Shown here: positions 14,985 through 63,836 of the stretch, one piece after another | How positions within the stretch are numbered: the stretch's first letter is position 1 | Layout: the number at the start of each line of letters is the position of its first letter | Source: Rotaria magnacalcarata | Taxonomy: Eukaryota | Length of the DNA stretch: 63,836 nucleotides | NCBI GenBank assembly: GCA_965140935.1 | Contig: CBCSLL010000228.1 | Span: forward strand, 14,084-77,919 | Direction of reading: 5' to 3' | Translations under genes and position numbers: made by a program | Notes under the pieces: model-generated | Database searches by the model: none | The model's input: only the letters and a program-made list of their open reading frames with translations | Told to the model about the DNA's origin: nothing

Positions 14985-15305
14985 AAAATTAATATCAGAT
15001 TCGGAATCAGCGTTAAACACTGAGTCGATCTATATATGTTGTGAATAATTCTGAGAGAAAAATTGTTTTTTGAAAAATCCCTGTACTCCCCCTCAGGGAT
15101 GGTCTGGTCAATAATGACAATTTTTTCGATAGCTTAGCCATTTCTTGACGGATTGCTTTCATCTTCGAACTCGGCTGAGATATTGATAAGATCATTCTGT
15201 GTACAAAATTTCATGACAATTGGATGAGGCTTTCAAAAGTTATCGTGTTAACGGACGGACGGTCGGACACACTGACAGAATCTAGAGTGTACTCAATTTT
15301 TGAGT
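14985..15305 (+). repeat. Interspersed repeat, copy A (approx 320 bp seen; family also present inverted at 63541-63836)
   Basis: 14988-15305 aligns with the reverse complement of 63541-63836, with roughly 80-85% identity by eye. Shared blocks include 'ATATCAGATTC(G/A)GAATCAGCGTTAAA', 'GAAAAATCCCTGTACTC(C/T)CCCTCAGGGATGGTCTG', 'TTCTTGACGGAT', 'CATCTTCGAACTCG' and 'GGACGG(A/C)(C/T)GGACACACTGAC'. Confidence 0.8.
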
Positions 15306-15713: not shown

Positions 15714-16880
15714 TTATTTGTATTTAAATCCAAATGCAAATCCACTTGTAGTTAATATTGTACAAGGCGAATTGCGATCCATTAATTGAAATTGTTCACA
15801 ATTCGATGAGTGATTTGGATTCAATGAATCTTCATTATCGTAAAAACTTGAATGACGAAAGCAATGACAAATATTTATTTTTAATTTCATAAAAAGACGT
15901 TTCCATTCACGACGAAATTTTGAATCAAATAAAATATAAATATAAAAATTTATTGCGAATGATATTTGATATATTGAATGAAAATACTTTTCTAATAGAA
16001 GAATTAATTTTGTTTCAACTATTTTGTGTCCATATAGTAAACGCCATGTATGAATAGATGCATACGGGGCACATATTATTAAATATGATGTCGAAACAGC
16101 TAACAGTAATTTCGTCATTTTACGTGAAGCATTTCGACGTGTTATTTCACGAATTTTATTCAATTGAGAATGATTTCGAAAAAGAAATTCATGTGGACTT
16201 TGTTTCATTCGTCGTAAAGATATTAATATAATTGTATTCATTACTATGATCGAAATATACGGAATAAGAAACACAACAAAGCAATCCACTATATCCATTA
16301 ATTCATTTATCCAACGTAAATGTTTCAATGAAAAACATTGCCCATTAACAATACCGATAAGAAATGGTAAATATGAATAAATTAAACAAGCAATGAATAT
16401 TATGAATAAAGCTAAACATCGAGAACGATACCATGAAAGTACATGTGAAACACGAAATGGTTTTACAACAGCAAATAAACGTTGAGCTGTAAATGACACT
16501 GTATAATAGGCACTTATAAAATTACATACATATGTTAAATATAATGTTAATTGGCAAACTACTGGACGATGAAGGAGATTTATATAATTCGATACCCATA
16601 AACAAAATAAAACAAATAAATATATTGTATCCGAAATAGCCATATAAAAAAGAAATGGATACACGGACATATTCGAGCCCATGGATGCAATCGTCGTACG
16701 TAATGCTCGTTGACCAAAAACAATAATTGCAAAACCATTTCCAATGCATCCGATTAACACTAATAGTAACCAATAGATATGACGAAAGAAAAAATCCAAT
16801 AGAGTTATAGGTGATGGCAGTTCCGCCGTATCCAAACTACTATTTAAACTCGTCGATGTGATATTCTCTGCATCAATCAT
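15714..16880 (-). CDS. Intronless rhodopsin-like (class A) G-protein-coupled receptor, orphan; 388 aa
   Basis: This is a single uninterrupted 388-aa ORF with seven hydrophobic helices. The N-terminal ectodomain has N-glycosylation sites (NITS, NSS). The TM3 end reads 'SFTAQRLFAVV', an AQR variant of the D/ERY motif. TM7 reads 'AINFYIYILF', an NFxxY variant of NPxxY. It has a long basic third intracellular loop ('SLRRMKQSPHEF...RRNASRKMTK') and a cysteine-containing C-tail. Confidence 0.8.
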   Translation of the reverse strand: MIDAENITSTSLNSSLDTAELPSPITLLDFFFRHIYWLLLVLIGCIGNGFAIIVFGQRALRTTIASMGSNMSVYPFLFYMAISDTIYLFVLFCLWVSNYINLLHRPVVCQLTLYLTYVCNFISAYYTVSFTAQRLFAVVKPFRVSHVLSWYRSRCLALFIIFIACLIYSYLPFLIGIVNGQCFSLKHLRWINELMDIVDCFVVFLIPYISIIVMNTIILISLRRMKQSPHEFLFRNHSQLNKIREITRRNASRKMTKLLLAVSTSYLIICAPYASIHTWRLLYGHKIVETKLILLLEKYFHSIYQISFAINFYIYILFDSKFRREWKRLFMKLKINICHCFRHSSFYDNEDSLNPNHSSNCEQFQLMDRNSPCTILTTSGFAFGFKYK

Positions 16881-19695: not shown

Positions 19696-21019
19696 AATGA
19701 GTCTTATTCACACTTTACTTGTTGGCCACGAACATGTTTAAAACTGGCCCCCCAAATAAATTTTTGTTGCTAAGAGCGGTTTATTTCCTTTTACCTATCT
19801 TTGACAATCGTCTTCCTTGCTTAGAGCATGTCCTCTTTGGTGTCACCCCGATTCGTCCCTTTTAATTTTTTCTTAACTCGTCCCATTCCGAATTTGTACC
19901 TATCTCAATTCGTCCCATACTTAATTGGTATCTAATTTTTCGGAATGTCATGATTATGCCCATCTATTGAATGCTAAATATATACTAATTACGATACCTT
20001 ATGTCTCGTTGGCCTTCCGAAGTACGAAAAAAACTTAGAAAATAGCGTGCACAAAGAAAATTGCTTTTATTTCTCTAGTAAACCAAATAACTACCATGCT
20101 TAAGTTCACATATAGCGAACGTTCAAAGCTTGTGTTGAACTTTAAAGGACATCAATATACCAAAAACCGGGAAGATAAAACTGGTCAAGAAAAAGAACAA
20201 TAAAGAGAGTAATAGCTTTAATGTAATCTTATTTTTCTTTGATAATAAATAGTTCTTTCTCTATAGGGTATTATATTAATTTACAGACAATCAGGGACGA
20301 GTTAAGAAAAATTTAAAACGGACGAATTGGGTATGGGACCAATCAGGGGCGAATCGGGGCTAAACCGTCCACTTTTCGCCTTTCCTCTTTCTCCTCTCCT
20401 TAATTGCGTTATCTCTTTGAAGTTGTCTTTTTCTTTTCTTTTTCGTCAAGACATGATCAACATCGGAAAGATACAAAAGTTATGTTTTTGCTTATTTTTC
20501 TAATCATTACAACTATCAACCATAAAAAGATTTGGATAATTTTTGTCATACGAACTTTTCGCTTAAAACTAAATTCTTCTGATAAATTACGACTGTTTTT
20601 TTTTAATTTTCACATCACTCCTGCTGTTATTATTCAAGTATTAACATATATGAAATAGGTGTTTTATGAACTAGAAATTAATTGTAACAAATTTAGTTGT
20701 AGTCTATATAAATACATCGTAATCCTTTTATCGTTGATAGTTGTAATGAATAGAATAATAAGCACGAACATAACTTTCGTATCTTTCCAATGTTAATCAT
20801 TTCTTGACGAAAAAGAAAGGAAGAAGACAACTTCAAAGAGATAACGCAATTAAGGAGAGGAGAAAGAGGAAAGGCGAAAAGTGGACATGCTCTAAGGAAG
20901 GAAGACGATTGTCAGAGATAGATAAAAGGAAATAAACCGCTCTTAGCAACAAAAATTTATTTGGGGGTCAGCTTTATACATGTTCGCGGTCAACAAGCAA
21001 AGTGTGAATAAGGCTCATT
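19696..21019. repeat. Complex nested inverted-repeat (foldback-like) structure, approx 1.3 kb: outer arms A 19696-19834 / A' 20881-21019; inner pair B 19845-19930 / B' 20281-20362; pair C 20360-20450 / C' 20800-20885
   Basis: A 'AATGAGTCTTATTCACACTTTACTTGTTGGCCACGAACATGTTTAAAACTGGCCCCCCAAATAAATTTTTGTTGCTAAGAGCGGTTTATTTCCTTTTACCTATCTTTGACAATCGTCTTCCTTGCTTAGAGCATGTCC' is the reverse complement of A' (approx 90% identity). C 'CACTTTTCGCCTTTCCTCTTTCTCCTCTCCTTAATTGCGTTATCTCTTTGAAGTTGTC...CGTCAAG' is the reverse complement of C' 'CTTGACGAAAAAGAAAGGAAGAAGACAACTTCAAAGAGATAACGCAATTAAGGAGAGG...GAAAAGTG'. B/B' share 'CCCCGATTCGTCCC...TTTTAATTTTTCTTAACTCGTCCC'. Confidence 0.8.
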
Positions 21020-21896: not shown

Positions 21897-23000
21897 TATA
21901 TATATATCAGAGACCGAAATCGAATCGAATCGAATGAATAAAAAAAAATGAAAAAAAGCCTAATCGAATCAATTCATTTTTCTTTCAGTTTCATTCGGCT
22001 ATTCAAAATCATTTTCTTTGTTCTGGTGTTATGGTCGAGGGTAGTTGACTAGTACACAAGAGATGACGAATGAAAAACGACGTCCACTGTTTCTCTTCCT
22101 TTGTTTCTGTCAGTCGTGCTTATTCAATAGTCATCCTTGTTCTGTTCATATCTTGAAGGTGTGGGTGTGAATTAAGGCATGTGATTGGTGTATTAAGAGG
22201 TAAGTAATCTTTTGGAGGTGATTTAACTCTTAATGTATCAATTAGATTGCTTAATACGACTTTAACTTTATTCACATTTCCAGTGCGATTGGGTTCTTGA
22301 TATCAGCCTCTTCATTTATTAAGCATGGGTACGGTCAACTGTAAATATAGATCCATATACAGTAAATAACATTATTTTTCTTCGTTCTATACAAAATAAA
22401 CTTATTTACTTACTCTACTTAGATGTGTTCATTAATTTATATTTTATGTATTCTTTCTTGAAAAAAATGAATAACCCAGGTCGACTGATCCGATAGGAAC
22501 CTGGAAATATCCTACACTCCGATACAATTCTATTGGATTCCAGGTCGAGGAATCAATGTCGGATCCTCAGTGTCGGAATCCTATGAACTTCCGATGACAT
22601 CCAACGGTTTTTCGTTGGAATTCATAGGAATCCGACACTGAGGATCCGACATCGATTCCTCGACCCGGAATCCAACGATAATTCTGTAAGATCTGACAGG
22701 ATCCGATAAAATCGTATTGGATTCCAGTCGGATCGGATGGGTTCCGATAGGTGCCTACTGGCGGATTGCTCGACCTGGGAATTCTTATGTAATTATATAT
22801 TCATAAATTATATTTATTCAACATATTATCTATAGAAGATCGACAGACTATTCTCATTCTAAGAAGATGAGAGTCTGAAAACAACAGTACCATGTTTTGT
22901 AAACCCAATTTGAGTCGAATCCGGATCCCGGTCCTGAAAACCCGAATCGAACCGAATGGCACTTTTGTCGTTCGTTTCGGTCTCTGACTCTGATATATAT
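21897..23000. mobile_element. Non-autonomous DNA-transposon-like element (MITE-like, approx 1.1 kb) with terminal inverted repeats, inserted between (TA)n tracts
   Basis: Left end 'TATATATCAGAGACCGAAATCGAATCGAATCGAATG' (21893-21930). Right end 'CATTCGGTTCGATTCGGG...TTTCGGTCTCTGACTCTGATATATATA' (approx 22935-23000). The two ends are imperfect reverse complements (core CAGAGACCGAAA / TTTCGGTCTCTG). (TA)n flanks both ends. The interior has no ORF and contains a 45-bp-arm perfect palindrome at 22543-22665. Confidence 0.55.
22543..22665. repeat. Near-perfect palindrome (45-bp arms, approx 33-bp loop) inside the MITE-like element
   Basis: 'GGTCGAGGAATCAATGTCGGATCCTCAGTGTCGGAATCCTATGAA' (22543-22587) is reverse-complementary to 'TTCATAGGAATCCGACACTGAGGATCCGACATCGATTCCTCGACC' (22621-22665), with a single mismatch. 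Confidence 0.85.
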
Positions 23001-23127
23001 ATGTTGCAGGGCAGATTGAAATTCAGTTCAGATTAAAATAACTTCGATTTCAACAAAGAAAAATTTTAAACTGAACTAGTTCAGATCAAAATTATTTTAA
23101 TCTGCACTGGATTTTAATCTATCCTAC

Positions 23128-23165
<38 letters not shown>
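23000..23165. repeat. (AT)n microsatellite (approx 23128-23162) preceded by a short inverted repeat 'CAGATTAAAATAA...TTATTTTAATCTG'
   Basis: Approx 17 AT dinucleotide units at 23128-23162. Arms of the inverted repeat are at approx 23021-23036 and 23090-23105. Confidence 0.8.
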
Positions 23166-29032: not shown

Positions 29033-30361
29033 ATCAAAAGGCTACAGAACAAATGTTTTTTTGATACCTATCAAATCAGATTTTTAGAATAGCACAAACT
29101 AGTGCTTAACAGATAAAATCAATCAATTGTTTTTTTTTGTATTTCAGCACAATTTGCTTGTCTGTGACAATTTCGTGTTTCGTTTTTTTTTCTTTTTGCT
29201 TATTTTATTTGATGTTGTTACTAATACAAATAAAGATATGAAACTGCTTGGCTAAAATCACTTCTAGTCTTTTGGATATTTTCAATCAACTAGGGCATGG
29301 ATGCCGACGAAGAGAAGAAAGATGCCATCACCCGCACCCGCAGGTTTCGTAATAAATAGAACGAATAATTCAGTAGATGCTAAAAATAACTAATGAATTT
29401 TAGCCATACAAATTTCATACTTCATCCATTGTTCTGCCGCTCATGATCAAAACAGTTGGAGGTATTTTAATAACTAGATTCCAAGGTTGTTTTACTCAAT
29501 TATTCAGCAATTAAAAGCTATGCTAAATTGCCGCTCTAATAGTGAAAACACTCCTTTACAAAAATAGAAACACAACTTCATAAGAAAAAAGGTCTCTGTC
29601 ACATCCTAGATCTTTCGAACTGTGTGCGCTGCAAAACAAAAGAATATGTTTTGTCTGTTTATTTGCACATCTTTATTTCCGTTCTAGTAGACGATGAAAC
29701 AAAAGTCTTCATGAAAAATCAAGGTAACAACGACGACTAGAATCAATTTTTCCGTGAAGTTCGCTTTATGTCTAGACGCTAAATTCTTTTTTTTTGATCT
29801 ATATCCCAATAAATTTAAAAATCACAACAAAAATGAACCCTGGATTTTTGTTTCGTTTGCTTTATTTCAATTGCAACAGAAATTCGACTTTATTTTAGAT
29901 ATTTCTTATCAGTGATTCATAAATTGACAAATGGTTTACTCAATATTATCGTTTTACTAACTATTCTGGTGATTTCTCATATAGAATATTTCAGAAACAC
30001 ATGAAATCACCGCGTTGTTATCTTTATACCACAGTATTGCAGCACACAATGTCAAACAGGGCTTTTGCGTTCTTCTCTAATTCTCTCTCTGCAACCCTTC
30101 GTTTCTTTCTTTCTCCTTATTTACCACATGAATCAACCTCAGTCGATTAGTATTGTGAGTTAGTCGCGCAAGGTTTGACGTTTACTCATATTCATGTAAT
30201 TTCACAATCGAATTGAAAAAAGTTGTTTTTTTTGTTTCTCTCGCACGTAACCCCTTTATAGCGTAGCTGTTTTTCAACGGATACTAGCATACATAAAAGC
30301 ACTCCTTATTCTTACAGATTTGCCGTTTTTTTTTTGGTTTTTTGGATAAGAAAATCTATCG

Positions 30362-33300
30362 ATGACTGATTCGAAAACTACCGGTGGTAAGCTGCATGAT
30401 GAATATGTTGTTCTTCTAAATATCGATGATGGTACTCTATTTAGTATACCGAATTCCTCCTTTCTACTATTTGCATGTTCTCGATCAGAACACAAATGTA
30501 ACTCGACTTGAAGTAGGTCCTAAAACTTTTGTTAAACAAGATCATGAAAAAGTTTTACTGGGACCTGAAGGCATGTTAATTATTCCGTATGTTTAATTAT
30601 TGTTTGTTTTTTCGCGAGATAAAATATGTTTTCGTTCATAGTCCACGTCATTATGCTGTTATTGATAATCCAGCAGTTCGAGATAAAGATGGTCAAGTTG
30701 TTATAGATGCTAATGGTCAAGTTAAATTATTGCATTCCGATGTTGATATTCGTTTTGCACAAGAACCATTTCCACTTTATCCTGGAGAAACTCTCAAACA
30801 AAATGTTACGCCATTGAAAGTTATTGAACCTAATTGCGCACTACGTCTTCGTACTGTTCTTGACTTCACCAATGATCACGGTGAACTAGTCCGAGCTGGG
30901 GATGAATTTCTTTTCCAGGGACCTGGTATGAAACCATAAGATTTTAGCGGATAAATAGAAAAATTTTTATGTTTTGATGTTTAGGCACTTATTTTCCACG
31001 TAAGGAAGTTAGCGTAGAAGAACAAATTAAAGCTGTTATTCTTAAGCCAAATGAAGCTGTTCGTTTACGTGCTAAGAAAGAAATGATAGATCGAAGTGGT
31101 GTAGAACGAGAAACCGGTGAAGAATGGCTTAATCGAACCGTCGGTTCATATTTACCATTAGCCTATGAAGAAGTTGTCTCGGTTGTCAAAGCCTATGTAC
31201 TTACTGATAAAGTACGATGTTGTGATTCTGTAAAGCATCCTTAATATCCTATTATATGCATATTTTGTTTTCAGAAAGCTCTTCATGTTCGTGCTTTACG
31301 TACGTTCACTGATTTATTCAAGCGTAAGCGTCTTCATGGTGAAGAATGGTTAGTCTATGCAAGTGATAGTGAAACCTATATTCCTGATGTTTACGAAGAA
31401 GTATGTTATCTTGTGTTTTCTTCGATGCAAAGAAAATATCCTTTTTTCTAGGTTGTTGGCGTTGTATCAGTGACAGTATTGAACTCTCGTCAATATTGTG
31501 TTATTGTGGATCCAGTTGATGCCGATGGTAAACTTCAACTTGGAAGAAAAAAACTAATTAAAGTACGAGAAAAATAATTGCATTTATCAAATATAAATAA
31601 TTATTTAACATTTTTCTATTTTTCAGGGTGAAAAAACATTCTTTCTTCAACCTGGTGAAAAATTAGCAAATGGTATTCAAGATGTTTACGTACTTGAAGA
31701 AGACGAAGGTCTTATTCTTCGTTGTACTGAGTCGTTTAAAGAAGACGAAGTAAGTTTGTGCTTTTGTTTATGGTTAATAGAAAATAACGACGATCTCTAT
31801 CAATAGAAAGTCTTACGAAACCCTGGTGATCGTTGGATGGTTCGCGGACCTAAAGATTATATACCGGCTGTTGAAGCCGACGTTGTACTTCGACGTAAAG
31901 CAATTCCATTGGATATTAACGAAGGAATCTATGTTCGTGATGTTAAAAGTGGTAAAGTTCGTGCCGTCATTGGCACAACATATCTGTTAACTGAAAATGA
32001 GGAACTTTGGGAGAAAGATTTGCCAGCACAAGTCGAACAATTACTTGTTTTAGATGCTCGACACTTCGAAGATAAATCAGGTACACCAGCTGCTATTCCA
32101 CCAAGAAATAAATCAAAAGTTGTTAGCTATCGCGTACCGCACAATGCTGCTGTACAAATTTATGACTTTAAATCTAAGAAGGCCCGCATTGTCTTTGGCC
32201 CTGAACTTGTTATTCTTGGCCCTGATGAACAATTTACAATTTTGAATTTATCCGGTGAAAAACCCAAAGTACCAAACAAAATTCGAGCAATCTGCCTTCT
32301 ATTGGGACCAGAATTCTCAAGTGATATTGTTACAATTGAATCAAGTGATCATGCTCGTCTTTCACTTAGACTTTCATACAATTGGCATTTTGAAGTAAGA
32401 ACCATTGAGGTCTTTTTCATTAAAAAGTAAACTGTTTTATGTCCAGGTCAGTGATCGTGAAGATAGCAAAGAAGTTGCGAAACTCTTTTCGGTTCCAGAT
32501 TTCGTTGGAGACTTTTGCAAGGCTGTTGCGGCGAAGATTCGTGGTGCCGTTGCTGGTATTTCATTTGATGATTTTCATAAGAATTCAGCAAAAATTATTC
32601 GTGCTTCTGTCTTTGGTCTTGATGAAAACAAACGAGTTAACAAACGTCTCGTATTTCCACAAAATAACTTGATTTTAACTTCGATCGATATTCAAAGTGT
32701 CGAGCCTGTCGATCAACGAACACGTGATGCACTTCAAAAGAGTGTTCAATTAGCTATTGAGGTAAGATCAGCGTAATTGACATCATTCATTTCAATGAAT
32801 TTTGTTTTGTTAGATTACAACAAATTCTCAAGAAGCTCAAGCAAAGTAAAAATCATTGATGAATTCAAATTGAATGTTCGCAATATTTCTCTTCATAGAC
32901 ATACGGCATCTCGTACAGAACAAGAAGCGAAAGGTCATTTAGAGAGACAGAAGATTGCTGATGAAGCTGAAGGTAAAAAAAAGAATTGATTAATACTTTT
33001 GTAAACAAAGATTTTCATACGTTTTGTTTTTGTTTGTAGCCGAAAAAGAACGTCGAAAACTATTACAACTACAAGCTGAATCATCAGCCGTTGAATCAAC
33101 TGGTCAAGCTAAAGCTGAAGCTCAATCACGAGCAGAAGCTGCTAAAATTGAGGGTTCAGCTGCTGTTGATCAAGGTAAATACTCTTGTCTAGATATGATT
33201 CTAGATTTCATCACATAGATATCTTTTATTTTAGCTAAACTTCGTGCCGAAGCAACAAAAATTGAATCCGATAGTGAACTTCAACGTTTAACACAAGCAC

Positions 33301-33640
33301 GAGAACTTGAATTAACATATGCAAAATTATCAAGCGATTTAGAAATTGAAAAAGCGAAACGATTAGCTGATATTGAAATTCAAGAATTTAAAGAACACAT
33401 TAATTCTATTGGATCAAAAACAATCCAAGCTATTGCTACTAGCGGACCCGATAATCAAGTAAGATTTTTCATCCTGTATTTTGTGTACTTCATCATTAAC
33501 GGAAAATTTCGTCTTACTAGGTTAAACTTCTTCAAGCTCTTGGCATCAAATCTACATTGATTACTGACGGACGTAGTCCAATCAATCTTTTCAATACAGC
33601 TGTTGACTTGGTCGGAGGAGGAGCCCCACAACAGCATTGA
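30362..33640 (+). CDS. MVP: Major vault protein, copy 1 (approx 14 exons; stop TGA 33638-33640). Resolved 5' exons: 30362-30386, 30445-30586, 30642-30925, 30985-approx 31212; further blocks approx 31273-31399, 31452-31563, 31626-31750, 31806-32393, 32447-32761, 32812-32844, 32902-32975, 33037-33177, 33235-33459, 33521-33640
   Basis: Near colinear match to vertebrate MVP: '[28 protein letters not shown]' (exon 1-2), '[13 protein letters not shown]' (exon 2-3 junction; GTATGT donor at 30587), '[49 protein letters not shown]', '[26 protein letters not shown]', the shoulder-domain segment '[30 protein letters not shown]...[26 protein letters not shown]', the cap-helix coiled coil, and C-terminal '[25 protein letters not shown]'. 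The 5' start is ambiguous (see findings). Confidence 0.9.
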
Positions 33641-34557
33641 GCGCTCATTCATACAACATATTAATACAGTGTTGATGTGGGTGCAGTCAGATTTTATCGA
33701 AAAAGCGAACTTTTAGCGATGCCATTTATTTCTTTTTATGTATTTGTGTAACCTATAGAATCTTTTTTTCTATCACTATTATCAAAAATAAAATATTAGT
33801 ATACTTCGAAAAATCATTTGATCTATTATTCAAACGCTTGCTAAGACGAGAAAATTCAAGATGAATTACCTTGAGTTCTGTTTTCAATCATTACCGACTA
33901 ATATAGATGTTTAAAATACTTCGTAAACAATTATAAAAATAAGCTGTCAATAGCCAGGTAAAATAATGCACAGAAACGAAATTGCAGTAAGAAGAAAAAC
34001 AAGCAAAAAATAAATGACTTCGAATTTATACACAGAACGAAATCGTCAATTAATCGAGTAAAAATACCTATTCTAGAAAAACAAATATTTGTTGGCTCAG
34101 TTAAAGATTGAATTGATTGGCGGTCTCTGCAGAAAAACATTTCGATGCAATCAAGATCATGCCGAAGTACGAAAACAGGAGGTTCTGTTATCTGTAGATC
34201 GAAAACAATATCCTGTGCGCGTCCGTAGAAATGATGTTTCCCAATCGAGAAGAAAATTTTGCGCTTAAAATTCCATGAATAATTAAAAATTCGACCATTT
34301 TACCCATGAAATTTTGTGCGACAACAAGTTTTTCAAGTTCGATATATCTCCGACGACAATGACATTATAGCCAGACTTTCATTACGCTTAGAAGTGAACA
34401 GTAGACAGTGGTACAAAAATAATTGGAACTACTTTTTTTACCTTTATTATTCTTACATATATGTATTATTTCATAAGAAATCAAACTAAGTGTATATAAA
34501 ATAAAGTTCAACACGCAGCTACGACAGACAGAAAAAGAAATATTTTAAATTTTATAT

Positions 34558-37500
34558 CTATTCATGTTCTTCGACATGATAATTGCTCGAAGTTGCAGTT
34601 GATGTACGAGGTTTTTGATTCATATTTCCGGTCATACCGCCTAGAAGACCTTGTCCGAATCCCATAAGATTGATTGGTGAACGGCCATCGGTAACCAACA
34701 TTGATTGAAGACCAAGTGCTTGTAAAAGTTTAACTTGTGTATCTGGACCAGACGTCGCAATAGCTTGTATGGTTGATGCACCAATCGCTTCAACTTGTAA
34801 TTTGAATTTATCGGTTTCAATTCTTGACATTTCAGCTTTTTTCGTGATTTCTAATTCATTTTGTTCACGTAAATATTTGATTTCAGCTTCGCGTGCTAAT
34901 TTCAAACGTTCTAATTCAGCCTCAGCTTCAATACGTGTCGCATCGGCTTTGAGACGAGCTAATCGAAAGAAAGAAAAAGAAAAAGTTTATTATTTAAACA
35001 CTTCGATTTTATTTTTACCTTGTTCAACGGCAGCTTTGCCTTCAATGAGAGCTGATTCAGCTCGACTTTGTGCTTCAGCTTTAGCGTGACCACTGACTTC
35101 AACAGCAGCTGATTCAGCTTGCAATTCAAGAAGTTGTCGTCGAACTTCCTCAGCTTCGGCTTCATCTTTTATGCGTTGGCGTTCGAGTAAACCTTTGGCT
35201 TCTTGTTCTCGACGTGAAGCTTCATGTTTAGCTGCAGCCTCTTGTGAATTTGTTGTAATCTAAGAAGCCAAAAAATTCATTGATACGGATGAAATCAATT
35301 ACATGTATCTTACTTCAATAGCCAATTGAACACTCTTCTGAAGTGCATCACGTGTTCGTTGATCAACAGGTTCGACACTTTGAATATCAATCGACGTAAT
35401 AACGAGATTATTTTGCGGGAAAACGAATTCATCTCGTACACGTTGATTCGAATCAAGACCAAATACAGCTGCACGAATAATATGAGCTGAATTCTTATGA
35501 AAATCATCGAATTGAGTTCCAGCAACAGCACCGCGAATACGCGATGCAATAGCTTTAGCTGCATCACCAACAAAATCGGGTACTGAAAAAAGTTTAGCAG
35601 CTTCTTTTTCGTCTTTAGTGTCGTTAACGTCGAAATGCCAATCTAAAGAAAAAATAGAGAGTTCAAAAAACATTTTCCTTTTTGAAATTTATCAATTTAC
35701 TGTAAGATAATTGAAGTGAAAGGCGAGCATGATCAGCTGTTTCAATAACAATAACATCGGTAAAGAAATCAGGACCAAGAAGTAAACAGAGTGATTGAAT
35801 TTGGTTCGCTTTTTTTGGCACAGAACCACTCAATGAAAGTAATGTAAAATGTTCTTCTGGGCCAAGCATAACAAGTTCAGGGCCAAAGATAATGCGTGCT
35901 TTTTTAGCCTTATAATCATAAATCTGTACAGCGGCATTGTGTGGCACGCGATACGCAACTAATTTCGATTTATCACGTTGAGTTGCGCTTGATTTTGCAC
36001 TTGCTTGCGTTGTCGTAGTTGCTTGCTGTTGAGCTTTATCTGCGCCTTGATTACGTGTTGGAACATTTCGTTCGGCTAGCGGATCACGAGAAAGTAACTC
36101 TTCAACTTGTTTAGGCAATTCTTTTTGCCAAAGTTCTTCATTTTGTGTGAGCATATAAGTTTCACCAACAACAGCTCGTACACGACCGGTTTTGATATCA
36201 CGAACATAGATACCTTCGTTTTCATCTAAAGGCATTGCTTTACGACGTGTAACAACTTCAACTTGTGTTGGAGGAATATATTCGCTATAGCGAGAAAAAA
36301 ATTAAAATTTTCAAACTAAAACTCAATGAATCGGTTTCTTACTTTGGCCCACGAATCATCCATCTGTCGCCGGGATTTCTTTCAACATGTGCTTGTTCAT
36401 CGGTAAATGCTTCGATACATTTAAGAATAACACCTTCATCTTCACCCAATATATACACATCTTGAATACCATTTTCAAGCGTCTCACCGGGTTGAAGAAA
36501 GAATGATTTTTCGCCAACAATAAGTTTCTATTAGAAACAAGAAATGATAACTTAGACAAAAATAATACTAGCACAAACCTTTTTTCCTAATTGCGGTTTT
36601 CCGTCTTCAACTGGATCAAGAACAACGCAATATTGTCGTGAGTTAAGTGTTATTACACCAACTACGGCCACTAACTGTTCATAAACATTGAGTGTATGAG
36701 TTTCAGTATCTTTGAGAGTTACAAGCCATTCTTCTCCATTCATACGATTTTTACCAAAATCATCCGTAAATGTTTTCAGAGCACGAAGATGTAATGCTTT
36801 TTTATCTGTTAATACATGAGCACTTTCGACCGACACAACAGTTTCCTAGATTATGGAAATAATAGTTAGGAGAAGAATTTTCAAACGTAATTTCCCTTAC
36901 ATAGGCAAGTGGTAGATAAGCACCGGTTTTTTTTATTAACCATTCTTCGCCGGTGACACGTCGTTGACCTGTTCGATCGATGATTTCTTTTTTAGCACAC
37001 AAGCGAATAGCTTGATTCGAGCTAATGACCGTGGCACGAATTTGTTCTTCTACGCTAACTTCTTTTCGTGGAATGTAAGTGCCTGGTCCTTCAAATAGCC
37101 ATTCGTCACCAGCACGACGCTGTTCTTTTGCTGTATCATCGTCGAAGTCGAGTACAGCCTTTAAGCGTAAAGCTGAATTAGCTGGTACGACTTTAAGTGG
37201 AGTAACTGGCTATCAAAGACTAGATTGTAAAAATGAAAAGTAATAATATAAATTTTTCTACCTGACGAAGAACTTCGCCTGGATAAAGTGGAAATGGTGA
37301 TTGATCAGTTTGTGCAAGACGAATATCCAAATCAGCATGAACAAGTTTAGCTTGGCCATTGGCATCGAATTGAACTTGTCCTTCGACATTGCGTATGACA
37401 GGCGATTCAACGACACAATAGTGACGTGGCCTAAATATTATTTTTATTTTTACTTTGTTGTTTTTCGAATTAATTTACGTACGGTACTGTAATCATTTTT

Positions 37501-37688
37501 TCTGGTCCGATCGTAACTGTTTCATTGTCTTGTTTAATGAATGTTTTAGGACCAACTTCAAGTCGTGTGACATTTGTATTTTGATCCAAAACATGAATAT
37601 AATAGTAGGGTGGTATGCGGTACAATGGACCGGCACCACCTTTACCAGAAGATGTAGTCGATGTTGACGGATTCATATTATTTGTCAA
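34558..37688 (-). CDS. MVP: Major vault protein, copy 2 (diverged paralog, convergent with copy 1); exon blocks approx 37470-37688, 36552-37002 (several exons), 36300-36500, 35663-36235, 35299-35673, 35040-35215, 34558-34960
   Basis: Minus-strand translation: '[69 protein letters not shown]' (N-terminal exon), '[80 protein letters not shown]', '[43 protein letters not shown]', '[29 protein letters not shown]...[26 protein letters not shown]', and C-terminal '[27 protein letters not shown]'. By eye it is approx 70-80% identical to copy 1 over conserved blocks. It has extra Q/T-rich linkers ('[31 protein letters not shown]'). Confidence 0.9.
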
Positions 37689-38619
37689 TGATAATCTAGA
37701 CGAATGTATGAGAAAATGAATGCCTACTTATAAAAAACTGAAAAATACGGGAGAGATGAACGAGATATTGAGAGAAAAGCAGTGAAATAGTTTTACGCAG
37801 CAATTGTGCAATTTTACCCCTCGAAAAAAAGAGAAAAAAATCTATATTTTTCTCTTTTTACGTGCGTTGTCGCTGTTATTGCACAACTCATGTGTTTCAT
37901 TTTATAACCCTTCAAGTCAATAATAACGACACAAATACACATATAAATATGTGGCGATGAATCATCATGATAGCAACATCATGAAGAAAACTGCAATTTC
38001 ATAAACTATTCTACTATTTTGAAAATAGAACATTTACGATGAAATGTAATTTGATCGCTAATCAAGTGTACACGTTCACTGGCATAAATGACTCGATCTC
38101 GTTAATATAAAATTGTCTTTTTTCTCAACCGAGGATATTAAAAAATGTTCAATTACGAATGATTTAAGTCCAGTCGATAGAATGAATGCCAAGTATTTAT
38201 TTGTTTTTCACCGCAACGGTTAAATAATAAGAATTTCAAACATCGAATGAAATCGAGATCAAAACTATGAAATAAGTCGATTGCATACATTTAATTTATT
38301 ATGTTGCAAGATGTATGCTTTGGACTGGATTACCAAAATAAAAGACGGTTTGACAGTTCTTCGAGCATCTTATTGATTTTTCTCAATTTTCAGTATATTT
38401 CAAAAATTAGCCCGTTTAAAATTCTTACATGATATTCTCACTAAATCGTAGCTTGAAAGATATCAGCAGATTTCAATATTCATTCTGTCCGAACATCATA
38501 TATCCTAGCCGACCATTGCTGTACAATTCTAAAATATGAATATAAGGAGCATGTAAAAAAAAAGGTTTACGAACACTTGTAAAATAAAATATCCACTACA
38601 TTTAGCTTGATAGCTCACA

Positions 38620-39950
38620 GCAATCAGTAGCTCATCTCAGAGGTGGGCAATTCAAGTCAAGTCATTATTGACTGACTTTGACTCGACTAGAGCAACTTTT
38701 TGATGATTCGAAGACTTGACTTGACTTGTAAATCGCTGGAAAATGCAAGTCAAGTCAGGTGTATTTCTGCAACTAAAATGGATATTAGGTTCATAAAGTG
38801 TAACGTTATTCATTTTGTTCTATAAGGAAATTCTTCTCTTTTTCCCATCAATACTGCACAGAAAATTGGTCATTCTTCGAGCGAAATATTATATCTGACT
38901 ACATTATTAGCAGTTAAATTCAACCAATGATAGGAGTTTAGGATGATTCATCGTATTAAACCAATTAAATTTATTCCAACATTTCTTGAGACTTAATATG
39001 AGTGAAAATATTTCACAAGGTGATGTTTATCTTCCAAATGGTTCTCCAGAGACGTGGGATTAAATATAAAGTATTGAACCAGTTGCAAAATATAGTTTTC
39101 ACAGTTCCCCCAACGTCATCACTTGCAGAAAGAATTTTCTCTCAAAGCGTTTTTACAATTCGACAACATAGATCAAGATAGTCAAGAAAGACATTAGAAT
39201 TGTTAAAATGTAGTCAGGAGCTAATGAAAAACATATTTTCAATAAACGGCTTGTCCACGTAACTGTCACCTTCGCTGCTGACGCTTTTGAAAAAATGTTT
39301 TTGCGAGATGAACCAATCTCGATACATCATTATATGTAGTTTTTCTCGCTGATTGAGAATCTAATATTCGTTCTTTAAAAAGATCGTTTTTTGGCAACCA
39401 TAACGGTGTTTTAAACTTTCGAAAAAGTGTATTTTTAATTTTTCAAGGGAAAAATGTTTTTGAAGAAGTCTGATTATTGTACCATTCGATGCAGAATTTG
39501 ATTCTCTACAAAATAGCCTATTTTTTAAACTTTCTTTCCCGAACACAACTTTTACATTGCTGTAGACTTGTCAACTTCCCATACTAATAACGAGTTTTCG
39601 CATCGTTGTAGCAACTTGATTTTTTGAACAGAGGTTACACGCAGACAAGGGACCAAGTGCTGTAAAAATTAGATCGATCTGAGCACGCTAAGTGACCCAA
39701 AATTGATCGACAAAAAAGGTGTCACAGCGTTACGCTTGGACAAGTAGTAAATTGATGTAGAGTTAAATTAAATTTTTTTAAAGCAATATCAAGTGAATGA
39801 CTTGACCCGAAAAAAGACTGATGACTCGAGACTCGACTGGGACTTGGGTATGACTGTGACTTGACTCAAGCGTCTCAATATTTTTGGGGATGACTGAACT
39901 TGACTTGGGTAAAAAGAACCTGACTCGCCCATCTCTGGCTCATTTCATAA
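38620..39950. mobile_element. Candidate non-autonomous TIR element (approx 1.3 kb) with long sub-terminal arrays of GACTTGACTTG / CAAGTCAAGTC motifs
   Basis: Left end 'CATCTCAGAGGTGGGCAATTCAAGTCAAGTCATTATTGACTGACTTTGACTCGACT...GACTTGACTTGACTTG...CAAGTCAAGTCAGG' (38625-38760). The right end (39790-39950) contains the complementary 'GACTTGACCCG...GACTCGAGACTCGACTGGGACTTGGG...GACTTGACTCAAG...GAACTTGACTTGGG...CCTGACTCGCCCATCTCTGGCTCAT', which reverse-complements to 'ATGAGCCAGAGATGGGCGAGTCAGG'. The interior has no long ORF. Confidence 0.4.
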
Positions 39951-44644: not shown

Positions 44645-47600
44645 TTAACTAGGAAGAGAAGAGATAAAACGATCATTTAGAATATCAAGTGTAGTTAATA
44701 TAATTCGTGGTATTGATGAAAAATATTTTAACCATATATCAATACATTCTTTTTGCATTTGAATACGTTGTTGTTTACCGATCTTTTTCAAATAATATGG
44801 TAATAGACTTAATGGTGAATTGGAATAGACGATGATTGATTGTGACCAATTGATTATTTCACTAAATGGCAGGATTACGAATTCATTGTCGTTTGTTGTT
44901 ATCACAGGTATACAACCATATTGTAATACTTCAAGAAAACGATACGAATATAAACGACGCCCACTTGGTACAAGACAAAAATAAGATTGACGAAGAAGTT
45001 CAGTATATTCGTGTTGATCATAGGAACTTGTATTATCAGTATATTTGATGATAATATCGTGATTATTGTTTAAATGACGGAAAAATGTACGATGATGTTG
45101 AACATCTTCATAGCTTTTACCTTTAAATGAAAGTAGAATTGTTCGGGTAGATGAAAATTTATTTGTGAGATTCGATGGATAATCAGAATGAAACAATGGA
45201 AATGTTACGTGTGATAAACAATTATAGTTAGCAGTAGTCAAACTAGTTAATGCCAGAATATGACGAGATGGTAATGTGAAATCTAGGGTACGTCGATACA
45301 GTGGCCATGTTCCTATAAGAGAATGGTGTAATTAATTTTCTGTTTCTTATTGAAAAATAAATTGTTCGGAAATGATATCATCAAAGCGGAATGTCCGCGA
45401 GAGATTAAAAATGTTGCTGCCGGTCTTAATTGCTCGTAGAAACCGTTAGGTGCTTACTAATGATGTGTTCGATACATTTTTATGACCATACAAAATACAA
45501 TATGGTGCAGGTGCGATAAGAACGACTTTTTGATCATAACAAATAGTTTACCGCCTGAGTCGATTCTGCGATAGTGCCTGTCAAATTGATTATTTGTTAA
45601 TCAAATGAAGAAACAATCGTCAATAATCAGGAGCATAGAGAAGGATACTTGCTGCGATACTCATAGGTTTGAATGCGCGGAAATTCGGTGTAAAAACAAT
45701 GTGAATAGAATGAAAGAATAGGCCATTTGAAAACGATCAAGTTTCATTTGAATAACTGATTTATTTGTTCATTTTTTATATGTGTTGACCTTTAGATTTA
45801 GTACTGTTGTAAGAAATTTGCACATTCATTTTCGAGATAAGAGCTTTCACAGAATTCGATGATCAAGTGAGATGAGATTAGCGGAAGGATAAAATCAGAA
45901 GAAGTCTAACAATAACTACTTGATATGATGTGTCGTGAATAAATTAAAATTTTTTTTCACCTGCAACTGTCATCGGTACGTGCAAAACTGAAGTCATTGT
46001 TGTGATGTTCATTGACTAATTTCGTGTGTATGTGACAGTATTCTCTCGACATGCCTTACGGACAAGTCACTCAATATGGAGATAGTATCACTGTTTATAC
46101 GTTTGAATAAACACGAAGTACATCTGAACATACAGCTCACAGTGGGATTCATTTCAATTGTTTGCGTTCGCATCCTTCATTATTCCGTTATCGTGTATGT
46201 CAACAAACACGTCGATTCTACGTGCAGGTGCAACACGAAAGAAATTCTTAGACATTGTACAAAAACAATAATTCTATTTGCTGAGAAAATTTCAAACTGT
46301 TTTTAATGATCTACTCAGTTAGTCTCGTGAGTCAGAGTATCGGTCAACAATGATATGTATCAATGTTTATTTGACAGTTTTGTCGACGAGGGATGACAGA
46401 AATGATGTATCTAAGGTGACACGTGCATACAGAGAAAAACAAATTTGTCTTTCTTAATATCGAATTACTCGGTTTGTATGAACACGTTCTTAATCTAACT
46501 AACGCATGTGAATAGGGTTGAAGAATGTGTACGAACTATAATTTATTTGAAGTCAATGCTTAATTATGGAACATTTTGCTCAGAAATAATAAGCCGAGTG
46601 AGCCATATGAGACGAAATATTTGATTTCTTTTCTAGTTGTTACTCTAGCCCATGCTACCGGACTGTTTTACTCATGAGGCACAAGCAAGTCAAGATTAAC
46701 TGCTTCCATACGTTGAATTGCATAGGTCAAAAATGTTATTTTGTTCAATAGATCATATCAACTGCTTCGAAGAAAAGAAAATAGCCATAAGTCAATTGTG
46801 ATCTAATAGGATAAGAAATAGATGTCAACCTTAGCATTTCTCTTCTCCTCGGTTAAATAAATACCAATCTATAAGTTGAAAAAAGTCTCTCTCTCTCTCT
46901 AATATTTAAATTTTCTTGAACAAATTATGTCTGATAGAGCTTTAGTTATTTACTGGTGGGGAAAGGACGTTACGATCTTAATCAAACAATAGATGATAAG
47001 AACCACGCACCGCCACTAATGTCTATTAAATAAATATTTAATGCGGAAATCTCGAGTGTCCACTTTCATCATTATTCACTTTGAATAAGTTACTTTCTAC
47101 TATAGGAAGTGCCATACAGAATCCATGATCTCATCATCCTGATTTTCATTTCCTCCAAGAAAAATCCGTTAGTCTCCCCATCAAAGAATTGGATTAGATA
47201 TTCTATTGTTTTTCTCTTCATATGAATTTGACGACATGATTTACGGCCATGTCCAATGATTTTCTCATTACAGTCTATGCAAATTGAAGGGAAATAAATG
47301 AACTACCTGTGTAATGATTGAATATCAAATGAATTTTATTCGGATCGGACCATTCACGAAAAAAATTCAAACGTTGTTCAATAAAATATGTATAATAACC
47401 ATTCTTCGATCGACGATCTCGATCGATAGTATCAACAGGTGCTATATGTATGCAAGCTGACGTTGAATCATTAGTATAATACGATGAAGTTCGAATTGTA
47501 TCGAGTATAGTTGTAAAAACAGGCGAACGTACGTATGATAGATTCGGATATTGAATATTTTCATCAATATGTATAGAAAATCGTGTAATATTATTTGGAC

Positions 47601-63540: not shown

Positions 63541-63836
63541 GTGTACTCAAAAGTGAGTAAACTACTAAAGTCGGTCAGTGTGTCCAGCCGTCCGTTTATT
63601 CGATTGAGCTGAAATTTTGTGTACAGAATTATCTCATCAATATCTAGGTCGAGTTCGAAGATGAGAGGGATCCGTCAAGAAACGGCTGAGTTATCGAAAA
63701 AATTGTCATTTTTGATCAGACCATCCCTGAGGGAGAGTACAGGGATTTTTCAAAAATAAAAAAGCTTTTCTCAGAATTATCCACAACATATATAAATCGA
63801 CTCAGTTTTTAACGCTGATTCTGAATCTGATATTAG
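63541..63836 (-). repeat. Interspersed repeat, copy B (same family as 14985-15305, opposite orientation; truncated by window end)
   Basis: This is the reverse complement of copy A, as described for that feature. It runs to the last base of the window, so its full length is unknown. Confidence 0.8.

Follow-up and report, generated by a model that had tools for sequence, protein, structure and literature searches.

What vaults do has been unclear ever since they were discovered; mammals and the other best-studied animals use a single major vault protein (MVP). The mammalian vault is a homo-oligomer from one gene, and its solved rat and human structures (among them 4V60, 7PKZ and 9Z4W) show a layout of vault repeats, shoulder, cap-helix and cap-ring. 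Paralogous MVPs have been studied in two lineages. In Trypanosoma brucei, three diverged full-length paralogs, MVP1, MVP2 and MVP3, occur in one genome, are conserved clade-wide, and reportedly build one vault shell together (PMC12547018). Each of them resembles MVPs from distant species more than, or about as much as, it resembles the other two. Dictyostelium discoideum, an amoebozoan with an independent duplication, has two paralogs, MvpA and MvpB, which are described as highly similar; according to the available accounts, disruption of either alters vault morphology, indicating mixed particles (Vasu and Rome 1995), and the available text of PMC12547018 gives these paralogs as a precedent for mixed vaults.

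For bdelloid rotifers, the available text and Table S5 of Moris et al. (2024; PMC10809525) report that several MVP genes of Adineta vaga are radiation-induced, as are PARP4-like genes with a VIT domain. Two of the MVP genes, FUN_011957 and FUN_011958, have consecutive ids and are presumably adjacent. Both are full-length, with the same expression level (baseMean 8758 and 8625) and the same time course (log2FC 2.55 and 2.48 at 2.5 h after X-rays). The available parts of that source list them as over-expressed 'MVPs' only, and paralog classes, convergent pairing, conservation and conversion are absent from those parts.

Herein, we describe a bdelloid locus that holds two classes of MVP gene. The window, the whole stretch of 63,836 nt analysed, comes from Rotaria magnacalcarata (contig CBCSLL010000228.1 of assembly GCA_965140935.1). 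The original prediction was that two complete MVP genes lie here on opposite strands with their stop codons about 0.9 kb apart. This was borne out: both genes, designated MVP-A and MVP-B, are intact, and the stop-to-stop gap is 917 bp (Table 1). In our judgement, the locus is very probably a genuine, intact convergent pair of anciently diverged MVP paralogs, both of them functional vault-shell genes. The two genes are ordinary MVPs that are already annotated as such in public databases. What is of value is the organisation of the locus rather than any novelty of the molecule, and the definition of MVP is unchanged. With two MVP classes, bdelloids offer a natural animal system for asking whether metazoan vault shells can be heteromeric.

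The MVP-A model was built by hand and cross-checked with a purpose-written spliced protein-to-genome aligner. With the Lottia MVP as an independent guide, exons 2-14 were recovered, and with the MVP-A protein itself as the guide, all 14 exons were recovered. The gene runs from an ATG at 30362 to a TGA at 33638-33640 and has 13 GT-AG introns of 51-67 nt. MVP-B runs from an ATG at 37676 to a stop at 34560-34558 and has 8 introns; the end coordinate of 37688 given earlier is that of an upstream TTG and is replaced here by the true start. In R. socialis, protein P0001 is 97% identical to MVP-A and the product of the neighbouring gene is 96.5% identical to MVP-B. In addition, a 61-aa fragment of R. 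magnacalcarata matches MVP-B at 61/61 residues.

Table 1. Coordinates of the features of the MVP-A/MVP-B locus in the window.
Feature	Position	Strand	Remarks
MVP-A gene, A-type major vault protein	30362..33640	+	14 exons, 841 aa
MVP-A exons 1-7	30362-30386, 30445-30586, 30642-30925, 30985-31211, 31275-31400, 31452-31562, 31627-31749	+	
MVP-A exons 8-14	31807-32394, 32447-32761, 32814-32845, 32899-32972, 33040-33174, 33235-33458, 33521-33640	+	TGA included
MVP-B gene, B-type major vault protein	34558..37676	-	9 exons, 892 aa
MVP-B exons 1-5	37676-37483, 37430-37262, 37209-36901, 36845-36579, 36527-36343	-	
MVP-B exons 6-9	36284-35701, 35642-35314, 35259-35019, 34958-34558	-	TAG included
MVP-B-specific R8-loop insertion	about 35978-36072	-	rich in Q, T, A, S; pairwise alignment
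MVP-B-specific extended C-terminal tail	34561..34635	-	about 19-25 residues longer than that of MVP-A
Tract 1, A-side	32113..32232	+	high identity; start of repeat R9
Tract 1, B-side	35849..35968	-	counterpart of A-side
Tract 2, A-side	32671..32848	+	exon 9 end, intron 9 (32762-32813), exon 10; encodes shoulder/cap-helix junction
Tract 2, B-side	35228..35404	-	exon 7 end, intron 7 (35313-35260), exon 8 start
Intergenic spacer	33641..34557	.	917 bp between stops; contains both predicted 3'UTRs, plus some 600 bp of DNA with poor conservation
Predicted poly(A) signal of MVP-A	33787..33792	+	first AATAAA, 147 nt past stop; pattern scan
Predicted poly(A) signal of MVP-B	34443..34448	-	first AATAAA, about 110 nt past stop; pattern scan
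Proximal C/EBP-like site, MVP-B promoter	37804..37811	-	TTGCACAA (gene strand), -135 from ATG
Distal C/EBP-like site, MVP-B promoter	37879..37886	-	TTGTGCAA (gene strand), -210
Degenerate counterpart, MVP-A promoter	30200..30221	+	TTTCACAATCGAATTGAAAAAA, -163; by eye, one mismatch; weak

Both proteins match the five MVP-specific Pfam families Vault, Vault_2, Vault_3, Vault_4 and MVP_shoulder. The repeat array of each is matched by Vault in four stretches, by Vault_2 in two, and by Vault_3 and Vault_4, with E values from 1e-17 to 1e-66, and positions 1-118 of the 118 in the MVP_shoulder profile (PF11978) are covered in both (E = 1.9e-48 for MVP-A and 7.9e-53 for MVP-B). MVP-A residues 8-839 align with residues 6-855 of the solved mammalian MVP, whose vault repeats R1-R9 match MVP-A residues 8-513, and MVP-B residues 18-867 align with residues 7-851 of the solved chains. 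The cap-helix and cap-ring region is present in both, within one full-length alignment reaching solved-chain residues 851-855, and the mammalian layout is thus common to A and B over their full length. Given their identity of about 60% to proteins that assemble, MVP-A and MVP-B are probably competent to assemble as subunits of the 78-subunit vault shell. A shoulder-loop insertion of the mammalian protein is missing from the rotifer MVPs, whereas an insertion in the R8 loop and an extended tail are MVP-B's own. R8 holds 21 B-only residues, a single net insertion of about 21 residues relative to MVP-A, aligned at a place where mammalian MVP also has small insertions relative to MVP-A. The Q/T-rich linker extras and the different C-terminal tail that had been noticed in this copy are recovered in the alignment as this insertion and the longer tail. 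An Rfam scan of the window returned no family at the gathering score, Vault RNA included.

The two paralogs are well separated from each other. BLASTP of MVP-A against MVP-B gave 66% identity and 81% positives over 851 columns (E = 0), and an earlier estimate of 70-80% amino acid identity holds inside conserved blocks but not overall. The three T. brucei paralogs are more divergent (52-58% similarity). When conversion tracts are left out, the coding nucleotides of A and B are about 67% identical. As had been predicted, the intron numbers differ (13 in A and 8 in B), with three positions and phases in common (A aa 56, phase 2; aa 648, phase 0; aa 728, phase 1); further common positions appear when Didymodactylos carnosus is added. 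Eleven exon-to-exon inverted repeats, 71-91% complementary, join A and B in colinear inverted order. Both paralogs are kept by purifying selection, with a dN/dS against the R. socialis orthologs of 0.099 for MVP-A and 0.122 for MVP-B.

Examination of related genomes revealed a convergent A/B pair in every bdelloid examined, including the early-branching Didymodactylos. R. socialis has the pair on 11 contigs; three of these, from three independent assemblies, are colinear with the window at about 92.6% nucleotide identity, and their convergent pair also encodes proteins of 841 and 892 aa. In the chromosome-level assembly of A. vaga, the same pair has the TPT and Sad1_UNC (SUN) flanks seen in the window, and Rotaria sp. 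Silwood1 and R. socialis each have a second pair locus with these flanks. Other flanking contexts surround the A/B pairs of Silwood1 L007 and D. carnosus L001. Conservation of the pair at a gap of 0.8-4 kb could be passive, and the TPT and SUN neighbours are also conserved between Rotaria and Adineta. All of the A-type genes examined (8/8) have a convergent B partner, and B-type genes also occur alone. Rotaria has at least three A-type and at least four B-type lineages. A third pair, A'/B3, was expected in R. magnacalcarata, where the B3 gene was found to have no A-type neighbour, indicating that the third pair has not been kept everywhere. Collectively, the gene order across these genomes indicates that the A/B pair has been inherited as one unit since the duplication, and that this unit was itself duplicated once more. 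Adjacency sets the bdelloid genes apart from the MVP genes of T. brucei, which by their gene ids lie on chromosomes 5 and 10 and are not neighbours; for Dictyostelium, we know of no description of a convergent MVP gene pair.

In neighbour-joining (NJ) trees, the A genes and the B genes each formed a clade with 100% bootstrap, and the topologies of the two subtrees were mirrored. Since Didymodactylos lies inside both clades, the trees place the inverted duplication earlier than the last common ancestor of extant bdelloids, and the intron positions still common to A and B indicate that it took place at the DNA level. The earlier claim of an old inverted duplication, and not a recent copy or an artefact, is upheld by the recurrence of the arrangement in other bdelloids, by an A-B synonymous divergence (dS) of about 1.1 and by the support for the two clades. 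The NJ bootstrap for monophyly of A and B relative to monogononts was 58% with all columns and 24% without the conversion tracts, and the alternatives received 47% (A with monogononts) and 29% (B with monogononts); gene conversion can bias tests of such grouping.

Gene conversion is well documented in bdelloids. The two paralogs had been called co-evolving, and this proved literally true, as comparison across lineages indicates that short tracts have been repeatedly homogenised by gene conversion between the inverted copies A and B. In tract 2, into which inverted repeats I4/I16 fall, A and B are 72-98% identical in 40-nt windows. The tract 2 intron has an A-B identity of 74% in the window, the highest among 104 intron pairs (z 3.4), and also of 74% in R. 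socialis. In A. vaga and at Silwood1 L010, the A and B introns are 100% identical to each other, yet unrelated between those lineages. For tract 1, the A-B identity in the window is 78-90% at the nucleotide level, and in A. vaga it is 94%, versus 77-88% for that A gene against orthologous A genes. Within the window, the coding sequence gives modest evidence of conversion, and most of the case comes from the intron. As in interlocus conversion between inverted duplicates generally, the tracts are short, include an intron and arose independently in different lineages. They are confined to about 120-180 bp in genes that are elsewhere 34% diverged, and whole-gene concerted evolution was not seen. 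These lineage-specific tracts provide a clean small case, from an asexual animal, of interlocus conversion acting on inverted paralogs.

Given two conserved classes of subunit, the reading that we prefer is that both enter the same particle. An MVP gene was duplicated in inverted orientation before the living bdelloids diverged, and the A/B pair has since been passed on as a unit, now present at two TPT/SUN-flanked loci and in other contexts. Purifying selection holds both members, each with its paralog-specific fixed differences. On the preferred reading, A and B would mix within the same vault shells, as do the MVP paralogs of trypanosomes and Dictyostelium. Isoform-specific surfaces would come from the R8-loop insertion and C-terminal tail of B, which the bdelloid pair allows to be studied in the R8 loop and at the cap. 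Such co-assembly is plausible, and by analogy with these systems we give it close to an even chance. Co-assembly in T. brucei has experimental support. Fixed differences between A and B were found at 32 sites, and their density is lowest in the cap-helix (2/156), which is the main lateral-contact domain of MVP.

Expression in A. vaga also bears on this point. BLAST of FUN_011957 and FUN_011958 to Lottia (2.5e-274 and 1.9e-288) fits an A-type gene followed by a B-type gene, as far as the available data on the two genes go. A. vaga has an orthologous TPT-A-B-SUN locus, and the two genes could be another pair. Judging from this consecutive-id pair, which could thus be a different one, A and B are likely to be co-expressed and stress-inducible.

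The closest alternative, which we regard as less likely than co-assembly but not by far, is that each paralog builds its own homomeric vaults, the two populations being either constitutive versus stress-induced or specific to tissues or stages. Vault assembly has been described as templated on a single polyribosome, a model that favours homomeric particles and predicts particles from one mRNA (PMC7916137). Furthermore, the half-shell has 39 subunits according to the available text of PMC13347060; this number is odd, and strict A/B alternation is therefore excluded. Three T. brucei subunits fit such a shell (39 = 3 x 13), but alternation of two kinds fails in a 39-mer. The fixed differences and the B-only loop insertion and tail, conserved across bdelloids, and the B-type genes without an A neighbour also fit separate populations. 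Against them, co-assembly is indicated in both lineages with studied MVP paralogs (PMC12547018), subunit exchange of vaults has been reported in vivo (PMC7916137), and in the available data of PMC10809525 the consecutive-id genes of A. vaga match in both level and time course. The sparsity of fixed differences in the cap-helix likewise speaks for shared shells. If the populations were separate, the adjacency of the genes would be a mere relic of the duplication.

The promoters provide a further point for separate populations, as the conserved C/EBP-like sites differ between A and B: B promoters have two such sites, and A promoters have mostly degenerate ones. The proximal site of MVP-B recurs at -132 to -143 in 5/5 of the other Rotaria and Adineta B1 and B2 promoters examined. 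At the place of the degenerate counterpart in MVP-A, the A gene of A. vaga carries a perfect TTGCACAAT...TTGAAAAA. In total, 12 C/EBP-like sites were counted in 3.9 kb of MVP promoters, versus 0.68 expected, among promoters that are related and whose counts are not independent. The 9-mer CGCACGTAA, common to both promoters of the window, was dropped as a candidate, as other species are without it.

Co-assembly can also be put in a stronger form. Bdelloid vaults would then be obligate A/B hetero-oligomers, with the convergent pair duplicating as a unit, conversion at the shoulder/cap-helix junction keeping the lateral interfaces compatible, and an expanded MVP family, inducible by radiation and desiccation (seven or more Rotaria loci), aiding extremotolerance; taken as a whole, this chain is improbable. 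A possible form of such a shell, suggested by the excess of B-type over A-type genes, is 13 x (A+2B), which fits the 39-fold half-shell. Bdelloids suit the question of whether vault abundance aids radiation and desiccation tolerance; R. magnacalcarata itself is a non-desiccating species.

Plain dosage redundancy, in which A and B would be functionally alike and extra copies would raise MVP output in a stress-tolerant animal, seems less probable still. The many bdelloid MVP loci, with the A-type and B-type lineages of Rotaria counted above, are consistent with it, as are the lack of relaxed constraint in either paralog and the radiation induction of several A. vaga MVP genes in the available data of PMC10809525. 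It fits poorly with a protein divergence of 34% that is stably maintained at a dN/dS of about 0.1 in both genes, with fixed differences, a B insertion and a B tail conserved since before the bdelloid radiation, and with a B partner for every A-type gene examined. Moreover, with gene conversion operating, homogenisation over the whole length would be expected, and only short tracts are homogenised.

It is very unlikely that one paralog has left the vault for a new role, although a non-vault function has a parallel in the extracellular cement-like MVP that the available text of PMC11219742 reports for another invertebrate, the salmon louse. In favour of such a role, MVP-A is the more derived paralog, with 45 unique changes at outgroup-invariant sites versus 31 in MVP-B. 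However, all MVP domains are full length in both proteins, and a domain-by-domain comparison found no domain degenerating, lost or gained. The MVPs of distant animals are about 66-70% identical to MVP-A and MVP-B, and inspection by eye revealed no obvious hydrophobic leader at either N-terminus.

A slighter chance again attaches to the proposal that the convergent layout is itself regulatory, with overlapping 3' ends and antisense or transcriptional-interference coupling. The gap in the window is short and the convergent orientation is conserved everywhere seen, but the poly(A) signals predict about 600 bp between the transcript ends, and the consecutive-id MVP genes of A. vaga rise together, not reciprocally. 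The stop-to-stop gap also varies among loci (797, 901, 917, 1897, 2832 and 4129 bp). Conservation across the locus is lowest in the spacer, with 86% identity to R. socialis versus about 96% for the rest of the CDS; against A. vaga, Silwood1 and D. carnosus, no conservation was found in it except for a block of about 30 nt at 33726-33760, in the 3'UTR of MVP-A. The coupling suggested in the original prediction is thus not sustained. Two candidate non-coding RNAs were rejected: a SNORD36-like match in the spacer at 34226-34315 (E = 1.3), below threshold and without conservation past R. socialis, and one resembling snR87 (E = 3.8), below the Rfam threshold.

An early bdelloid assembly reportedly contained palindromic mis-assemblies, but a wrongly joined haplotype or a duplicate that was collapsed or expanded has next to no probability here, as the copies are too dissimilar in protein, coding nucleotides and exon structure, and the reading is refuted by the same junction in three independent R. 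socialis assemblies, with the structure repeated in other genera, one of them assembled to chromosome level.

The convergent pair in the window consists of two intact, constrained and anciently separate genes for major vault protein (MVP), which have been kept tail to tail while swapping short conversion tracts. As originally predicted, MVP-A and MVP-B lie on opposite strands with their stop codons about 0.9 kb apart (917 bp). The window is AT-rich (about 33-37% GC), and its GT-AG introns are very short. The model of gene A was built by hand and checked with a purpose-written spliced protein-to-genome aligner; exons 2-14 of A were recovered with the Lottia MVP as guide, and all exons of A and B with their own proteins as guides. 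The second gene is present as described, except for its start: position 37688, taken as the outer edge of the pair, is an upstream TTG, and the ATG lies at 37676. Both proteins carry the five MVP-specific Pfam families (Vault, Vault_2, Vault_3, Vault_4 and MVP_shoulder), and each aligns in a single stretch to solved mammalian MVP chains (residues 8-839 of A with 6-855, residues 18-867 of B with 7-851). Every hallmark of the MVP family that can be tested by sequence was found in both A and B, and public records already annotate these genes as 'Major vault protein'. The proteins are clear paralogs, 66% identical and 81% similar, which calls for a small correction to the earlier by-eye estimate of roughly 70-80% in conserved blocks. 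The extra Q/T-rich insertion and the different C-terminal tail ascribed to the second copy were both found: the R8 loop of B (R1-R9 denote the vault repeats) carries some 21 more residues than that of A as a net insertion enriched in Q, T, A and S, and the tail of B is longer. The unequal intron numbers were likewise confirmed.

Coordinates of the two MVP genes and of the high-identity A/B tracts
Feature	Coordinates	Strand	Details
MVP-A gene	30362-33640	+	ATG 30362, TGA 33638-33640, 14 exons, 841 aa
MVP-B gene	37676-34558	-	ATG 37676, end 34558, 9 exons, 892 aa
Tract 1	A-side 32113-32232 vs B-side 35849-35968	A-side +, B-side -	inverted-repeat and identity scans
Tract 2	A-side 32671-32848 vs B-side 35228-35404	A-side +, B-side -	inverted-repeat and identity scans

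The top database match of A was a Rotaria socialis MVP (97% identity), and R. socialis contigs, 11 of which carry the A-type protein, were colinear with the window at about 92.6% nucleotide identity. Over a 61-aa fragment from R. magnacalcarata, B agrees at 61/61 residues (R. socialis, 58/61), which makes R. magnacalcarata, closely related to R. socialis, the most likely source of the window. Three R. socialis contigs, from three different assemblies, share the gene order Mo-cofactor oxidoreductase, TPT transporter, MVP of 841 aa (+), MVP of 892 aa (-) and Sad1/UNC protein. Given this recurrence, a mis-assembled junction is excluded, and A and B cannot be alleles, being only 66% identical and differently split into exons; a haplotype or assembly artefact was therefore ruled out, as had been anticipated.

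Elsewhere in the window, Pfam domains marked an ACE-like peptidase M2 exon (6072-6644, -), an intronless rhodopsin-type GPCR (15714-16880, -; the A. vaga locus, too, has a GPCR upstream) and an exostosin GT47 exon (44645-45241, -). The colinear R. socialis contigs lack a 1.26-kb stretch (21899-23158) that is framed by (TA)n runs together with short inverted termini (CAGAGACCGAAA..., 21907-21929 vs 22971-23002); a transposon insertion specific to this species is the probable explanation. R. socialis likewise has no counterpart of the roughly 1.3 kb that separate the MVP-B promoter from the Sad1/UNC gene (38640-39937), in which neither a long ORF nor inverted repeats were found. At 19696-21019, a non-coding element of some 1.3 kb resembles a foldback or MITE-like transposon: its terminal inverted repeats are long (19696-19838 vs 20878-21019, 84-96%), and it encloses a palindrome (20367-20537 vs 20716-20886, 92%). 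Two inverted copies of a roughly 240-nt dispersed repeat (14990-15225 vs 63598-63835), 48 kb apart and 87-88% complementary, probably belong to a repeat family.

The convergent A/B pair with its TPT and Sad1_UNC flanks was also found in chromosome-level Adineta vaga, at a second Rotaria sp. Silwood1 locus, which is probably homoeologous, and at a second R. socialis locus; further convergent pairs, in Silwood1 (L007) and in Didymodactylos carnosus, have unrelated flanks. Neighbour-joining trees built from rotifer and outgroup MVPs gave 100% bootstrap to Rotifera and to each of the two bdelloid clades, A and B. Didymodactylos was found in both A and B clades, and the two subtrees have the same shape (Didymodactylos first, then the L007 type, then the type with TPT/SUN flanks), which leads to the conclusion that the pair predates the crown bdelloid divergence and was later re-duplicated as a unit. 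Together with an A-versus-B dS of about 1.1, this bears out the proposed old inverted duplication, and the synteny check suggested with it revealed a double MVP locus in all four of these relatives. Monophyly of A plus B relative to monogononts received 58% bootstrap, and 24% with the conversion tracts masked. The Brachionus calyciflorus contig (L009, 2242-4809) carries one MVP with a single intron, versus 13 (A) and 8 (B) in bdelloids, at a position common to no bdelloid intron.

Rotaria genomes hold at least three A-type and at least four B-type MVP lineages. A convergent B partner was present for 8/8 A-type genes examined. B-type genes sometimes stand alone, as in Silwood1 (L011, 10001-13780) and at a further R. 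magnacalcarata locus (L013, 9001-12116); among the eight A-type genes, pairing is invariable. At the second R. socialis locus (L012, 1264-6563), the Sad1/UNC gene is separated from MVP-B by three additional genes, one of them for a pentapeptide-repeat protein. That family is mostly bacterial, and the insertion was possibly acquired horizontally.

Both genes are under constraint, with dN/dS against the R. socialis orthologs of 0.099 (A) and 0.122 (B) at a dS of 0.13-0.14 and similar values in deeper comparisons; a domain-by-domain search of A and B found no decaying domain. Unique changes at outgroup-invariant sites numbered 45 in A versus 31 in B, and A is slightly the more derived paralog. 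Thirty-two sites set every A sequence apart from essentially every B sequence by a fixed difference; they are densest in R5, R7 and the cap-ring and sparsest (2/156) in the cap-helix, the main lateral-contact domain of MVP. Three intron positions and phases are common to A and B of the window, and four more once Didymodactylos is counted; the remaining introns are paralog-specific and kept within each class across Rotaria and Adineta, indicating duplication at the DNA level followed by intron turnover.

Third-codon-position identity between A and B was about 45-55% over most of the gene, with two peaks, at the start of R9 (A residues about 450-482, tract 1) and at the shoulder/cap-helix junction (A residues about 610-657, tract 2). 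The second peak extends into a shared phase-0 intron. Its A and B copies show 100% identity both in A. vaga (57 nt) and in Silwood1 L010 (56 nt), although the A. vaga and Silwood1 introns are unrelated to each other. Introns identical inside one genome yet unrelated across genomes rule out a conserved intronic element and argue for recurrent, lineage-specific gene conversion. In the window and R. socialis, the A and B introns are 74% identical, ranking first among 104 pairings of an A intron with a B intron (z = 3.4); the value was 65% at the second R. socialis locus and at background in L007 and Didymodactylos. In A. vaga tract 1, A was 94% identical to B, versus 77-88% to orthologous A genes. 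In the window, conversion is of old date and has partly decayed; coding sequence by itself would be weak evidence here, and the argument is carried by the intron. In D. carnosus, the N-terminal 30 or so codons (first sliding window) of A and B share 90% of nucleotides and 77% of third positions, the rest being far lower, which suggests a separate lineage-specific conversion tract elsewhere in the gene.

Moris et al. report that five MVP genes are over-expressed in irradiated A. vaga (PMC10809525). Two full-length genes with consecutive identifiers, FUN_011957 and FUN_011958, appear in their Table S5 with mean counts of 8758 and 8625, that is, about 1:1, and with X-ray log2FC of -0.78 and -1.03 at 0 h, +2.55 and +2.48 at 2.5 h, and +0.59 and +0.34 at 8 h, respectively. 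Judged by their BLAST scores against Lottia, the first would be an A-type and the second a B-type gene. PARP4-like genes with a vault VIT domain are likewise induced.

A and B presumably both make vault shell subunits and are presumably expressed together. Mixing of the two within the same shells has close to an even chance. The 1:1 expression in A. vaga, the constant pairing of A with B (8/8) and the scarcity of fixed differences in the cap-helix point this way, as do the studied paralogs of T. brucei and Dictyostelium, for which the evidence points to mixed particles (PMC12547018). Against it, a half-shell of 39 subunits makes strict two-subunit alternation impossible (PMC13347060), and the polyribosome-templated assembly model favours homomers (PMC7916137); separate homomeric populations of A and B are somewhat less likely than mixed shells. 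A pure dosage role of the extra copies is improbable, and a non-vault role for one of the two genes very much so.

The nearest parallels described so far are the vault of trypanosomes, with its three paralogs, and MvpA/B of Dictyostelium. Unlike these, the bdelloid case is an animal one, its classes form a convergent gene pair re-duplicated as a unit, and the pair undergoes local gene conversion. A full-text literature search for vault or MVP with rotifer or bdelloid returned the A. vaga transcriptome paper only (PMC10809525), which does not describe paralog classes, convergent pairing, re-duplication or gene conversion.

The spacer between the stop codons (33641-34557) is the least conserved portion of the locus (86% identity to R. 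socialis) and ranges from 797 to 4129 bp across loci. The first AATAAA signals lie at 33787 (+) and 34448 (-), placing the predicted transcript ends about 600 bp apart, and an Rfam scan gave no family at gathering score. The suggested antisense or transcriptional-interference coupling through overlapping 3' ends thus finds no support. A SNORD36-like match in the spacer was weak and not conserved, and was discarded. Within the 3'UTR of MVP-A, some 30 nt (33726-33760) form the only spacer block with similarity in other genera; it matches A. vaga and Silwood1 L010 (E 0.001-0.002) and may be a 3'UTR regulatory element.

The MVP-B promoter carries two C/EBP-like octamers of the form TTGYRCAA, TTGTGCAA at -210 (37879-37886) and TTGCACAA at -135 (37804-37811), and both recur at equal distances in all Rotaria and Adineta promoters of the B-type groups B1/B2 examined (including L003, L006, L010 and L011). 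Twelve such sites occur in 3.9 kb of MVP promoters versus 0.68 expected, the promoters being related and the counts not independent. A-type promoters have mostly degenerate, one-mismatch versions, e.g. TTTCACAA (window 30200-30207) then TTGAAAAAA. The sites are candidate regulators of MVP-B, a lead and not a demonstration; a C/EBP-like bZIP is itself listed as radiation-induced in A. vaga in Table S5 (PMC10809525).
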